Made by a program: the position numbers and the translations under genes. Of a DNA stretch of 64,000 bases, positions 46,141 through 49,279 are shown piece after piece. Position 1 is the first letter of the stretch. Each line of letters starts with the position of its first letter. Below the pieces are notes generated by a model. It saw only the letters and a list, made by a program, of their open reading frames with translations. It had not been told where the DNA came from and made no database searches. Source of the stretch: Candidatus Bathyarchaeota archaeon. Its GTDB lineage: Archaea > Thermoproteota > Bathyarchaeia > 40CM-2-53-6. The stretch lies in the NCBI GenBank assembly GCA_963706285.1, contig CAVPLU010000004.1:160001-224000 (forward strand), given 5' to 3'.

Positions 46141-47358
46141 TCAACTTTGCGAAAGCACCGCCATCACCGATTCTCGAGTCGGCTTCACGTTGACCATTCG
46201 CTCTGTAGAAACGCCTATCGCTTCCTGATCCTTCAAGCCATTGCCTGTCGTGATGCAAACAGTCTCCTCGTCAGCGTCAATGAGGCCTCCAGCTGCAAGC
46301 TTTCTAACGCCTGCTATGGCTGAGGCGCTTGCAGGTTCGACGAAGATGCCTTCTTTGGACGCGAGCATTTTTTGGGCATGAAGGATCTCATTGTCATTGA
46401 CGGTTTCAATCAGTCCTTTTGATTCCCTGGCGGCTGCAAGGGCTCTCTTCCAGTTGACGGGCGATCCTATCCTGATGGCAGTGGCGATTGTCTCTGGGTT
46501 TGCAGCTGGTTCGATGTAATCGAGGCCAAGCTTGAACGCTTTCGCAATTGGTGAAGCTCTTTCTGCTTGGATGCCTATTAGACGTGGAAGCCTATCCGCC
46601 AGCCCTAGGGCTCTGAGTTCGAGCAGACCCTTCCAGACCGCAGTAATATTGCCTGCATTCCCGACCGGAAGTACTATGACCTCCGGGAGACGGCGAAGCT
46701 GGTCATTGATCTCAAACACGACTGTCTTCTGCCCCTCGACTCTGAACGGGTTGACCGAGTTCAGGAGATATGGGCTTCCATCTTTCCGAGCTGCGTCGAC
46801 GACGAGGCGCATCGCATCGTCGAAGTTGCCATCAATCTCGATTATCTTTGCACTATGCACAACAGCTTGAGCGAGCTTCCCCGCCGCGATCTTGCCCGAA
46901 GGAATCATGACGAAACATTTCAGACCAGCCCTTGCCGAGTAAGCGGCAAGGGACGCCGAGGTGTTACCCGTTGACGCACACATCGTCGAGTCTGCGCCGA
47001 GTAGGAGTGCTTTCGTCACGCCGATAGTCATACCTCTATCTTTGAACGAGCCGGTTGGATTCTCGCCCTCGTTCTTGACATGAAGCCGTTTCACCCCTAG
47101 AGTGCTCGCGAGACGTCGGCATTCGTGAAGTCCAGTGCCGCCTTCTCCAAGCGAAATGATATCGGCGCTTACGTCGATTGGTAAGACCTCGCGGTATCGC
47201 CATACACCGAGTTCTCTAGCGCTCCAGCCCCTAATGTCCAGATCTGCCATGTCGACAAGCTTGATCTCAAGCAGGCCACCGCATTTCCCGCATACGTATG
47301 CGCGTTCGTTCAGATTATGTAAGGTTCCACATTCAATGCATTCCATTGTGTGCTCCAT
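46141..47358 (-). CDS. thrC: Threonine synthase
   Basis: CIECG..CGKCG, SLGEGGT, NPTGSFKDRG, ASTGNTSAS, PVGNAGN, EPASA, TGNGLKD. Confidence 0.95.
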   Translation of the reverse strand: MEHTMECIECGTLHNLNERAYVCGKCGGLLEIKLVDMADLDIRGWSARELGVWRYREVLPIDVSADIISLGEGGTGLHECRRLASTLGVKRLHVKNEGENPTGSFKDRGMTIGVTKALLLGADSTMCASTGNTSASLAAYSARAGLKCFVMIPSGKIAAGKLAQAVVHSAKIIEIDGNFDDAMRLVVDAARKDGSPYLLNSVNPFRVEGQKTVVFEINDQLRRLPEVIVLPVGNAGNITAVWKGLLELRALGLADRLPRLIGIQAERASPIAKAFKLGLDYIEPAANPETIATAIRIGSPVNWKRALAAARESKGLIETVNDNEILHAQKMLASKEGIFVEPASASAIAGVRKLAAGGLIDADEETVCITTGNGLKDQEAIGVSTERMVNVKPTRESVMAVLSQS

Positions 47359-47555
47359 TCGCCATTTACTCCTTGTCGCTTGAGACCGACACGGAAGGCA
47401 TCGATGTCGTCCAACATGAACTGTCGTTGGCGCGAGAACTCGAAAGGGCAGTTGAGTTTTGATTAGAGCACATTTTCAGTCACAATCCAATTCATCAGGA
47501 CGCCGATCAGCGAGAAGGTAACTCCGAGGATTTCAGGAGCACCGTGCTGTTCGGC

Positions 47556-47624
47556 TCAGCTAGTGCTATGCGTTGTCACTTCAGATGTGACTGTTGTCGA
47601 CGTGCTGGGAGTAGGAGTGGGCAA
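47556..47624 (-). CDS. Putative Thr-rich leader peptide MPTPTPSTSTTVTSEVTTHSTS (22 aa, 9 Thr), thrL-like
   Basis: TTG start 5 nt after the GAGGTG SD (47630-47635); TATA TTTTATTA upstream; same strand as thrC, ending ~200 nt before it. Confidence 0.7.
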   Translation of the reverse strand: MPTPTPSTSTTVTSEVTTHSTS

Positions 47625-47660
47625 CGCTGCACCTCGGCCGTCCAGTTGTCGATCAACACG

Positions 47661-47668
47661 TAATAAAA
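47661..47668 (-). promoter_or_regulatory. TATA box for the leader-thrC transcript
   Basis: GGCAAG-TTTTATTA on the minus strand, predicting a start site near 47640, just 5' of the SD. Confidence 0.6.
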
Positions 47669-47773
47669 CTTGCCCAGGGGGTCGACGCATTTCAAAATCA
47701 GCTGACGAATGCAAATCGCGAGCGAGCTGGCCGCCGAATAATCCTCTGAAACGGGATCTTTGGATCTATGTTC

Positions 47774-49279
47774 CTATGTGGAGGGTTGTGCACGTGCGTC
47801 ACTAGCGCTGTCCGCTTCTTCCACGCTCCAAGCTCTCTCGATGCCCTTACGGCGATAGATGAGCAGTTTCACGCGGTTCATCACGTACGCAAGGAAGACA
47901 TGTTCCTGATGGTAGGTTCTATCGAGGATTGCCTCTTCGGATAAGAACGCTGTCTTCAATTCGTCCAGCTCTCTCTTGGGCGAGAAGAAGGCATATACTG
48001 GAACTCCAACCGCCAACAAGACTAGCGAGACTAGGATCTGCTGCTCAGCAACTTGCGTCATCAACACAAGCGAGAAGATGACTGTGAGCGTTGGGACTAG
48101 TAGTTTCGCTGTTTTCTTCTCGCTCAGTTTTGGATGTTTTTTCTCCAACAAGTATGTGGAGATGCCTGTTGCGAGATACGCGAACGATAGAAGGAAGACG
48201 GAGCTGTTGATCAGTGTCGATAGTGTGCCAATCACGCTTGCAATGAATGCTGTTGCACACAGAAGAGCCAACCCAATGTAGGGTGTGTGAAAAGAACTGT
48301 GCAACCTGCTGAACAGCCGAGGGAGTAAGCCGTCGGTCGACATTGCAAAAGCCAATCGCGATGTCCCTATTGTTCCTGACTCATCCGCCCCCATTATCGA
48401 GACCAACGCTCCAACACCCACGATTATACTCCCAACCCATGCCAAACTGGGCGATAGACTGAACACATTCGCGCCTGCCACGGTCAATGGAGCTGGTGAA
48501 GACACGAGCGTCGCTTGATCGACAACGCCAACTATCACGAAGTTTGTGACGAGATAGAAGCAAGTGACAATCATCATGCCCACTGCTATGGCTTTTGGAA
48601 TGGTTCGCCTCGGGTTCTGTATTTCGTCAGCGGGCAAAGTGCAAAGCTCGAAACCGGCATAGGCCCAAAAGATCAGCACCAGTGCTTGTCCCACATTTCG
48701 TAGGTCGCCCTTGAAAAAAGGTTGGAAGTTGGAGAATGCAAGCTCGTGACGTAATCCCATGAACAATAATCCTGAGACCATCAAGAGGAGGAGTGGGCCG
48801 AGTTTCCCCAGTGTCAAGATGTCATTGAATTTGCCCGCCGACTTAACCCCGACTACGTTCGTTATGAAAATAATTGCGATGAATAGTCCTTTCAACAAAA
48901 TCTGAGAAAACGTATCCAAGTTTGGAATGAATGCCAGAAAGTACTGAGTGAAGGCTACGGGGAAGACAGCTAGGGAGAACCACTCAGCAAGCAGAAGCGC
49001 CCAACCAACGAGGAATCCAGGGAACGGACCGCCCACATTCTTTGCATACGCGTACGGTCCGCCAACCCTTGGCAAAATAGTGGCACAGTAAGAGAAAGAG
49101 AGAGCGATTACAATCGCCATGACGCCTGCAATTACCCAAAGCACAAGCGACGCCGGGCCGACGAGTCTCGCGCCGAGCGCTGCTGCCACATATATGTCAG
49201 CTCCAATGATGGAGCCAACCACGAGATTCGTAACGTCAAAGGTATTCAGCCGTCGTGTTAGATTGATTTTGCCACTCAA
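47774..49279 (-). CDS. APC-family amino acid permease
   Basis: VVGSIIGADI, GGPYAY, FWAYAGFE..EIQNPRRTIP, SRLAFAMSTDG; ~12 TM; TTG start inferred. Confidence 0.9.
   Translation of the reverse strand: MSGKINLTRRLNTFDVTNLVVGSIIGADIYVAAALGARLVGPASLVLWVIAGVMAIVIALSFSYCATILPRVGGPYAYAKNVGGPFPGFLVGWALLLAEWFSLAVFPVAFTQYFLAFIPNLDTFSQILLKGLFIAIIFITNVVGVKSAGKFNDILTLGKLGPLLLLMVSGLLFMGLRHELAFSNFQPFFKGDLRNVGQALVLIFWAYAGFELCTLPADEIQNPRRTIPKAIAVGMMIVTCFYLVTNFVIVGVVDQATLVSSPAPLTVAGANVFSLSPSLAWVGSIIVGVGALVSIMGADESGTIGTSRLAFAMSTDGLLPRLFSRLHSSFHTPYIGLALLCATAFIASVIGTLSTLINSSVFLLSFAYLATGISTYLLEKKHPKLSEKKTAKLLVPTLTVIFSLVLMTQVAEQQILVSLVLLAVGVPVYAFFSPKRELDELKTAFLSEEAILDRTYHQEHVFLAYVMNRVKLLIYRRKGIERAWSVEEADSASDARAQPST

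Follow-up and report, generated by a model that had tools for sequence, protein, structure and literature searches.

Does an archaeon let a translating ribosome report on threonine supply to the genes that make this amino acid? The question is raised by a stretch of 64,000 nucleotides (nt) from a Candidatus Bathyarchaeota archaeon (GenBank assembly GCA_963706285.1, contig CAVPLU010000004.1, positions 160,001 to 224,000; hereafter the window, and its genome G000), in which the 415-nt gap between an APC-type amino-acid permease gene and thrC contains a whole candidate leader on the minus strand. An original prediction, made from the letters of the window, had singled out a Thr-rich upstream open reading frame (uORF1) in this gap and proposed that ribosomes stalling on its Thr codons control the genes that follow. 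uORF1 (47624–47556, minus strand) consists of TTG, 21 further codons and a TGA stop (47558–47556) and encodes MPTPTPSTSTTVTSEVTTHSTS, a peptide of 22 residues that includes 9 Thr and two Thr-Thr pairs. Comparative evidence now sustains the core of that prediction, while the anatomy it gave to the spacer has had to be corrected. We consider it likely that uORF1 is a translated leader peptide on which the ribosome gauges charged tRNA-Thr and so sets thr expression in cis.

Conservation and coding signal of uORF1

Re-reading the sequence bore out the predicted order of a TATA box, GAGGTG, a 5-nt gap and TTG at the head of the 22 codons. The Shine-Dalgarno (SD)-like GAGGTG (47635–47630, minus strand) lies five bases before TTG. 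No 16S rRNA 3′ end was found in a search of the G000 assembly, and SD labels are thus given here by likeness.

As the prediction required, relatives carry a Thr-rich uORF upstream of their thr genes. The Thr leader is present in 11 of the 105 genomes of this Bathyarchaeia order, belonging to four genera, and a pattern scan found it in 25 metagenome contigs as well. Within the family (59 genomes), BLAST detected leader DNA in G001, G002 and G007; in G002 and G007 it stands before thrB, which there precedes thrC, and G005 holds a diverged copy upstream of thrB. Two more genomes, G075 and G080, came from a pattern search of the order and have 9 and 7 consecutive Thr, respectively; the longest Thr runs overall are 10 (L036) and 9 (G075). 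Further pattern matches in the order were mostly chance (26 of 29), lying inside coding sequence with no biased ORF. Two contigs of G001, C62 (L035) and C87 (L032), share a near-identical permease end and thr leader and probably represent one locus, present as strain variants or duplicated in assembly.

An independent route began from thrB, which was collected from 146 of 301 Bathyarchaeia genomes, and used the presence of a Thr-rich small ORF as the sole criterion in the 700 nt upstream of the 40 best matches outside the genus. Four of these 40 regions carry such an ORF upstream of thrB: G311 (MSPTLFTFVATTTTTTTQTTD), G049 (MNSKPFITDTTTTTSTTTTTQTTN), G044 (MNSKLLATDAITTTTITTQTTD) and G012 (MPSAPLRTVTTVTTTTTTQTN), which belong to three further genera and two further families within the order. 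Across 30 loci the downstream gene is thrB in 25, thrC in three (G000, G001 and L060) and unreadable in two; wherever the flanks can be read, uORF1 heads thrB or thrC, and it stands before thrC where thrB is gone.

The start lies exactly 22 codons before TGA in 26 of the 30 loci and 20, 21 or 23 codons before it in three, the remaining locus being cut by its contig; the start codon is TTG in 28 of 30 distinct sequences and ATG in two. Length is kept at 20–25 codons, non-Thr positions vary freely, and the leaders of G000's own genus (hereafter genus 1) have GAGGTG or GAGGC/GAGGG 5–6 nt upstream of the start. Thr makes up 269 of the 662 residues (41%) in the 30 distinct uORFs, compared with 5.9% in long G000 ORFs. 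With codons numbered backwards from the uORF1 stop (−1, −2 and so on), Thr codons cluster at −13 to −5 and occur again at −2: in 29 distinct sequences Thr occupies codon −6 in 29, −5 in 28, −2 in 29, −10 in 27 and −12 in 25, and because the metagenome pattern consisted of the last uORF1 codons and the 5′ strand of the adjoining helix P1, the invariance of those columns arises by construction.

These Thr residues are spelled by two to four synonymous codons per conserved position (three at −6 and at −2), so that Thr identity is maintained in relatives through synonymous change, as the prediction had anticipated. The other two frames contain 26 and 5 Thr in 580 codons, with 12 and 20 stops. This codon record indicates that selection acts on the decoded residue rather than on the RNA sequence. 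Together, the conserved SD-like element and start, the fixed length, the synonymous variation and the closed alternative frames suggest that uORF1 is translated.

A hairpin beginning at the stop codon

RNAalifold, applied to 26 leaders, placed a long helix directly 3′ of uORF1. In G000 this is a predicted 56-nt hairpin (47557–47502, minus strand; RNAalifold and folding), in which the P1 5′ strand GAGCCGAACAGC (47557–47546) and the P1 3′ strand GCTGATCGGC (47511–47502) enclose an inner part, P2 (47542–47518). Taken from the stop codon through the 3′ strand, 18 of 18 representative leaders fold at −19 to −31 kcal/mol, with z-scores of −1.3 to −5.1 against dinucleotide shuffles; the G000 hairpin reaches −24.2 kcal/mol (z −3.2). 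When these leaders are folded alone, the first pair forms at the G of UGA in 17 of the 18, and in the G000 and G001 folds pairing begins three bases further on.

P1 comprises an outer helix of 7–8 base pairs (bp) and an inner helix of 4 bp, and 10–12 of its 11–12 positions are paired in 14 distinct versions. P2 differs in sequence among clades, yet folds in each. Between genus 1 and the divergent leaders, by which we mean those from other genera, two P1 positions have changed on both sides (C-G/U-G/U-A and A-U/G-U/G-C). Within the genus-1 set, 92.9% of cells are paired compared with 26–54% when the partners are slid; the divergent set gives 94.8% compared with 25–43%, and two of its pairs have changed on both sides. 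The hairpin is well supported by its computed stability and its persistence.

A model of the hairpin, R2, recovered only its 7 seeds over the 105 genomes of the order and nothing real in a class sample of 151 genomes, a match in G152 being dropped on inspection. An Rfam cmscan of positions 46900–48100 on both strands, at E up to 10, gave 0 matches, Thr_leader included.

Judged by eye, the uORF1 SD region AGAGGTTC of G311, G049 and G044 (L065, L066 and L067) shows full complementarity along 8 nt to the 5′ side of P2, GAACCTCT. The counterpart in G012, likewise judged by eye, is GAGTTTC/GAAACT, with two compensating changes. A feedback on uORF1 loading through this complementarity is possible.

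A second ORF between the hairpin and the enzyme genes

The prediction had uORF1 end about 200 nt before thrC, across a spacer. This spacer holds the 56-nt hairpin and, over most of its length, a 35-codon ORF, uORF2 or ORF2 (47473–47366, minus strand; ATG, 34 codons and TAA), which ends 7 nt before the thrC ATG. Upstream of it lies TTGTGACTG (47485–47477, minus strand), a set of invariant alignment columns that we read as the putative SD-like element of uORF2 (SD2). The family consensus of SD2 is GGTTTGTGA, with TTGTGA invariant in the alignment columns, and GTGATC-type motifs also occur upstream of ilvB in the genus. ORF2 starts 28–33 nt beyond the hairpin. It is continuous with thrB at some loci and elsewhere ends 3–7 nt before thrC or serB; its translation would therefore carry ribosomes into the enzyme genes.

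uORF2 is homologous to an N-terminal extension of ThrB in relatives. At all thrB-type loci the thrB frame extends upstream without a stop as far as a start 60–85 nt after the uORF1 stop. The match of ThrB to the homoserine kinase model does not begin before residue 42–43, so that the leader-bearing thrB has an N-terminal extension of about 42–45 residues. Its sequence is poorly conserved (M.(Y/S)(L/S)N..(H/D)DS.. in L033 461–1510 and other thrB-type loci). Judged by open-frame length, the extension is absent from most other Bathyarchaeia thrB genes: the four outside genomes that carry the uORF have thrB frames of 342–369 amino acids (aa), among the longest, and the others mostly have 305–336. 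In G000, G001 and L060, thrB is gone and the extension remains as a separate ORF of 35–38 codons. The second ORF has 38 codons in G001 and L060 and stops 3 nt before thrC, compared with 7 nt in G000. A tblastn search with ThrB of G002 found none in the G000 assembly, which is 89% complete. Nor was a homoserine kinase of the GHMP type found in G000 or G001 (89% and 84% complete), in which the leader is joined to thrC instead.

A fusion of uORF1 to ORF2 by frameshifting or read-through was rejected, since the thrB frame opens at offsets of 70, 74 and 77–79 after TGA, which fall in different frames with stops between; in L045 the frame after TGA closes within 5 codons, as judged by eye. From the hairpin 3′ strand to the thrB start, RNAalifold found 0 consensus pairs in 15 leaders, and the ORF2 stretch therefore looks constrained for translation rather than for a fold. 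This also bears on small hairpins that had been proposed for the spacer. CCAAC..GTTGG has one compensatory partner in G001, but with no consensus pairs in this region it is not a family feature, and AGCAC-G-GTGCT is impossible because its loop would be 1 nt.

Candidate leaders with other cognate residues

A Ser version of the leader was found as one pattern match in G271, from another family of the order. This leader (L133 221–560; G271:C99) has a TATA box, AGAGGT, an ORF of ATG plus 26 codons, and TGA; the encoded peptide, MYYDSACKRSIILSKKSSGSGSTQSSN, has 9 Ser and 1 Thr in 27 codons, and the uORF stands on the same P1 helix, with 12 of 12 positions paired. After the hairpin come AGGAGA and a 55-codon ORF2 that ends 6 nt before a HAD phosphatase gene. 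The best family for this gene is SerB (TIGR00338, E 3.9e-26), the match to the 102-aa fragment staying below the full-length cut-off because the contig ends inside the gene.

A search of the G000 genome for biased small ORFs whose stop adjoins a hairpin yielded an Ile/Leu/Val-rich uORF with a TTG start (..LRLLSIVVSVVLVLIVVQ) outside the window, at G000:C3:3101–3202 (L142 302–403). A 10-bp hairpin follows 0–2 nt after its stop, and then come ilvB (TIGR00118, 671 bits) and ilvN. Both the uORF and the hairpin are conserved in G008 and G002, and this uORF is likely a branched-chain leader peptide. Three pathways with three matching residues on one building plan are hard to explain except by amino-acid sensing.

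The Ser-rich uORF before the serB-like gene of G271 and the Ile/Leu/Val-rich uORF before ilvBN of G000 answer the expectation that cognate-codon uORFs would precede other biosynthetic operons. The His and Trp leaders also sought under that expectation did not appear convincingly in two scans of the G000 genome, and the same holds for Arg and aromatic leaders. Candidates at C3:134004, C19, C6 and C3:204224 were set aside for lack of a cognate gene downstream. A Thr-rich ORF at G000:C10 (L061 2974–3330, minus strand) proved to encode a Thr-rich surface-type protein, not a leader; its 118 residues end in PIPGFP, a hydrophobic stretch and basic residues, in this order, an arrangement that we take to resemble an archaeal C-terminal sorting signal.

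Hints of transcription of the leader

One RNA-library run, X2, produced a contig covering 47428–47635 with 4 differences; its 5′ end coincides with the initial G of GAGGTG and lies 26 nt past the TATA box. A second RNA-library contig (47207–47451, 1 difference) bridges uORF2 and thrC. Run X3 gave no contig on the region and X4 gave one 33-nt unlike piece, the uncovered parts being uninformative. We take the two contigs, both of low depth, as a weak hint of a 5′ end near 47635 and of transcription through the leader. The original prediction depended on thrC transcription not starting downstream of 47556, and the low-depth contig begins upstream of that point, at 47635, although this is a contig end only.

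Proposed mechanism, points against it and alternatives

From the arrangement described above, the mRNA would begin a few bases upstream of GAGGTG, and a ribosome initiating at TTG would then meet the Thr codons. Because the Thr run ends 4–5 codons before the stop, geometry predicts that a ribosome stalled on it, at least 4 codons short of the stop, would leave the hairpin folded, and that a ribosome with UGA in its A site would have to unzip the 7–8 bp outer helix; the ribosome's reach in this geometry is that known from bacterial work. The state of the hairpin would thus report whether ribosomes pass the Thr codons. The sign is assumed: taking starvation as the condition that switches the genes on, the folded hairpin would be the ON state.

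How the hairpin would act is a separate matter, which we consider on the premise that the sensor is real. We favor initiation control at the relay ORF, ORF2, with polarity as a consequence, because ORF2 alone links the leader to the enzyme genes throughout; we give this output slightly less than an even chance. A terminating ribosome would occupy the P1 5′ strand, and the hairpin strands thereby released from pairing might disturb the SD2/start region; the lost translation of ORF2 would add polarity on the operon. In G000 the SD2/start region is unpaired at 0.24 when free and at 0.60 with a ribosome on codon 11, and a stalled ribosome also makes it more accessible in 3 of 4 divergent leaders. 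Given such mixed folding results, occlusion of SD2 and the start codon is a possibility for the control step. A hairpin that shields the transcript from termination by FttA or at a U-tract is a serious but lesser candidate for the output, and some other output, a positive relay included, is rather unlikely.

Several results weigh against the sensor and this mechanism. The Thr bias of uORF1 in G000 alone is ordinary: among SD-preceded small ORFs in the non-coding parts of G000, 99 of 2183 are equally biased by the measure of at least 5 of one residue per 10-residue window, and the case for uORF1 therefore rests on conservation. Conservation is itself bounded, as 36 of the 40 other Bathyarchaeia thrB upstream regions lack such a uORF and the invariance of the pattern columns is built in. 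Within genus 1 there are zero two-sided P1 changes, and the covariation score of the divergent set was reached by 50 of 500 shuffles, so covariation supports the hairpin weakly. The two low-depth RNA contigs may contain DNA. On a plain reading, a ribosome at the stop opens the structure, which would raise rather than lower expression when Thr is plentiful, the sign being assumed. The classical scheme also finds no counterpart: T-runs never exceed 3 in genus-1 leaders, in keeping with the absence of a classic hairpin-poly(U) terminator already noted in the prediction, and when the P1 5′ strand was masked in 18 leaders to look for a region 4, the best partner of the 3′ strand was scattered from −104 to +128. 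A classical region 4 was accordingly rejected, there being no consistent alternative partner for the P1 3′ strand; an alternative 8-bp hairpin, CGACUCAG/CUGAGUCG, is confined to the divergent group. In the other genus-1 leaders SD2/start accessibility hardly changes under ribosome masks, and the uORF1-SD2 duplex has z < −2 in only 3 of 23 leaders (G000, L038 and L040).

The alternative that comes nearest to the relay-ORF reading keeps the same sensor and gives it a transcriptional output, the folded hairpin acting as an anti-terminator that, between uORF1 and ORF2, counters termination by FttA/aCPSF1 or at a weak U-tract; with a ribosome at the stop, no hairpin would form behind RNA polymerase and the transcript would be cut or terminated. 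Such a switch would have the right sign without a region 4. A run of four T, GTTTTGAA, follows directly after the hairpin in 3 of 7 divergent leaders, in genus-1 leaders the hairpin is followed by a pyrimidine-rich tract and the invariant GGTTTGTGA, and G000 encodes the archaeal KH/beta-lactamase nuclease FttA/aCPSF1 (TIGR03675, 897 bits, above the curated cut-off). Two published reports describe aCPSF1 as cooperating with U-tracts and as taking RNA straight from the exit channel (PMC8716108, PMC11616081). Yet the U-tracts are merely 3–4 long and their place is not conserved between groups, the X2 contig extends 74 nt beyond the hairpin, and the constant retention of a putatively translated ORF2 goes unexplained. 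We regard this alternative as possible, though doubtful. It is improbable that the relay works positively, with ribosomes that finish uORF1 opening the hairpin and promoting ORF2 loading, so that expression would fall on Thr shortage and the Thr codons would tie thr-gene translation to translational capacity. Geometry does allow only a terminating ribosome to melt the outer helix, ORF2 is tightly coupled to the main gene, and no alternative structure was found in 18 leaders; but this sign would be maladaptive for biosynthetic genes, and the match of residue to pathway in three cases (Thr/thr, Ser/serB and Ile/Leu/Val with ilvBN) would have no explanation.

The two remaining explanations dispense with a sensing ribosome. 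The leader might be an RNA-only element, that is, a small RNA or a hairpin bound by a protein or ligand, in which the open frame would be incidental and untranslated. The hairpin and flanking motifs are indeed its most conserved nucleotides, and an RNA class not listed in Rfam, which has nothing similar, is conceivable. Against this stand the retention of Thr through synonymous changes where nucleotides vary, the conserved 20–25-codon length, SD and start (including a TTG-to-ATG change), the closed other frames and the switch of residue to Ser before serB, which together leave this explanation a shade less probable still than a positive relay. That the Thr-rich product of uORF1 is itself a functional small peptide, perhaps modified or secreted, or that uORF1 is a chance ORF, we consider highly improbable. 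Its bias in G000 would by itself fall within the chance range of small ORFs, but conservation across four genera excludes chance, and a functional peptide is hard to square with freely varying non-Thr positions, the lack of a signal sequence or partner gene, and a position that is always at the head of thr genes.

The leader locus and neighboring genes

All features of the operon are on the minus strand. The gap that holds the leader is bounded upstream by the APC-type permease gene (49351–47774; AA_permease_2, 1.2e-53). The sequence GCAAGTTTTATTA (47673–47661) resembles a TFB-recognition element (BRE) and TATA box, the TATA box proper, TTTTATTA, lying inside it at 47668–47661. In the alignment the motif RCAAGTYTTATTA occurs at the same place across genus-1 leaders, and divergent leaders have other TATA-like A/T boxes at the promoter position; we infer that GCAAGTTTTATTA is the promoter. 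On the opposite (plus) strand, an 80-codon ORF that overlaps the leader (47563–47805) is probably spurious.

The co-oriented series thrC-hom-asd-lysC named in the prediction is borne out by domain matches. thrC, for threonine synthase, begins with ATG at 47358 and extends to 46141 (PALP; TIGR00260, 344 bits against a cut-off of 167.1). It is followed by hom, for homoserine dehydrogenase (46111–45068; Homoserine_dh, 1e-53), by asd, for aspartate-semialdehyde dehydrogenase (44876–43784; domain matches), which lies in two frames in the assembly, and by a lysC-type aspartate kinase gene with two ACT domains (43779–42361; AA_kinase 3.1e-52, ACT_9 and ACT_7). The N-terminal part of asd is an 87-codon ORF (44876–44613) that matches Asd residues 1–53, and the remainder (44656–43784) begins at position 55 of the NAD-domain model; the gene is frameshifted, misassembled or a pseudogene. 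In ThrC, the match to the thrC family model does not begin before residue 52, and the N-terminus contains CxxC...CxxC (MECIECGTLHNLNERAYVCGKCGG; window 47338–47270), a zinc-ribbon-like addition.

Comparison with known systems and implications

The classical ribosome-mediated transcription attenuator for threonine genes is enterobacterial thrL (Rfam Thr_leader). Like it, uORF1 is a short, in this case probably translated, ORF of about 20 codons, rich in codons for the end product and placed at the head of threonine genes, with a stop codon that adjoins an RNA structure and charged tRNA presumably sensed through the position of the ribosome. The uORF1 leader differs from thrL in that it has no sequence or structure match in Rfam (0 matches, E up to 10), no U-run terminator hairpin and no 3:4 alternative; it has instead a single long hairpin starting inside the stop codon and a second, putatively translated ORF between uORF1 and the enzyme gene, and no Ile codons are mixed in. 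Its host, moreover, is an archaeon, and to our knowledge archaeal RNA polymerase does not use hairpin terminators.

Controls that work without a terminator may resemble it more closely. The ermC and cat leaders act by translational attenuation, and so reportedly do the polycysteine leaderless uORFs of mycobacteria (bioRxiv 10.1101/834739). These uORFs share with uORF1 a cognate-codon ORF that affects the next gene without an intrinsic terminator, the output plausibly falling at initiation of the next ORF, and on this analogy terminator-less uORF controls such as the mycobacterial polycysteine uORFs may be its nearest mechanistic relatives. Unlike the ermC-type and polycysteine systems, the leader has SD2 outside the conserved hairpin, shows predicted occlusion in some members only, and gives uORF1 an SD of its own where the mycobacterial uORFs are leaderless. 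In tnaC/Rho and similar bacterial systems, the position of the ribosome on the leader ORF decides whether a termination factor gains access to the nascent RNA, which makes them the analogue of the variant with FttA. FttA/aCPSF1 is, however, an unrelated nuclease, and the signal for uORF1 would be tRNA charging rather than a free amino acid sensed in the tunnel.

Among archaea, ribosome profiling has revealed translated small ORFs in the 5′ untranslated regions of Haloferax volcanii (PMC10117724) and Methanosarcina mazei (PMC11456600), which, in the passages concerned, their authors term "reminiscent" of leader peptide genes. As with uORF1, those ORFs adjoin or run into the main gene; these passages name no codon bias, cognate pathway or conserved hairpin. 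A full-text literature search, with supplementary uORF tables outside its reach, returned no archaeal amino-acid leader peptide. The view taken in the original prediction, that leader-peptide attenuation of amino-acid operons is not established in archaea, agrees with the relevant passage of Blombach et al. 2021, where no archaeal example of transcription attenuation or antitermination was known (PMC8448881). Heading thr genes here and in about 40 related sequences, uORF1 is very probably a ribosome-read amino-acid gauge of a kind that is in print for bacteria only.

More tentatively, and at less than even confidence, we suggest a modular family of attenuators in Bathyarchaeia that departs from the bacterial build. 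The stop codon of a cognate-codon leader ORF would form the first pair of a long hairpin, behind which a relay ORF, fused or tightly coupled to the enzyme gene, would lie. Thr and Ser would be exchangeable on one scaffold, and a like-built Ile/Leu/Val leader would serve ilvBN. No intrinsic terminator would be needed: as long as the hairpin is folded, the relay ORF and with it the operon would stay expressed, with the start left free or FttA excluded. If true, archaea would here have their first documented mechanism of attenuation or antitermination. The leader, at about 300 nt, is a compact test object that comes with natural variants and a natural Thr-to-Ser sensor swap, and archaeal transcription-translation coupling and factor-dependent termination could be studied on it. 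The analysis also provides a search rule, namely a cognate-codon small ORF whose stop adjoins a hairpin. Should the reading hold, ribosome-mediated sensing of tRNA charging would not be a bacterial speciality and would be in use in an abundant, uncultured class of archaea. Its wiring would suit the archaeal machinery, in that it would rely on a relay ORF, and possibly on FttA, and dispense with a hairpin terminator.

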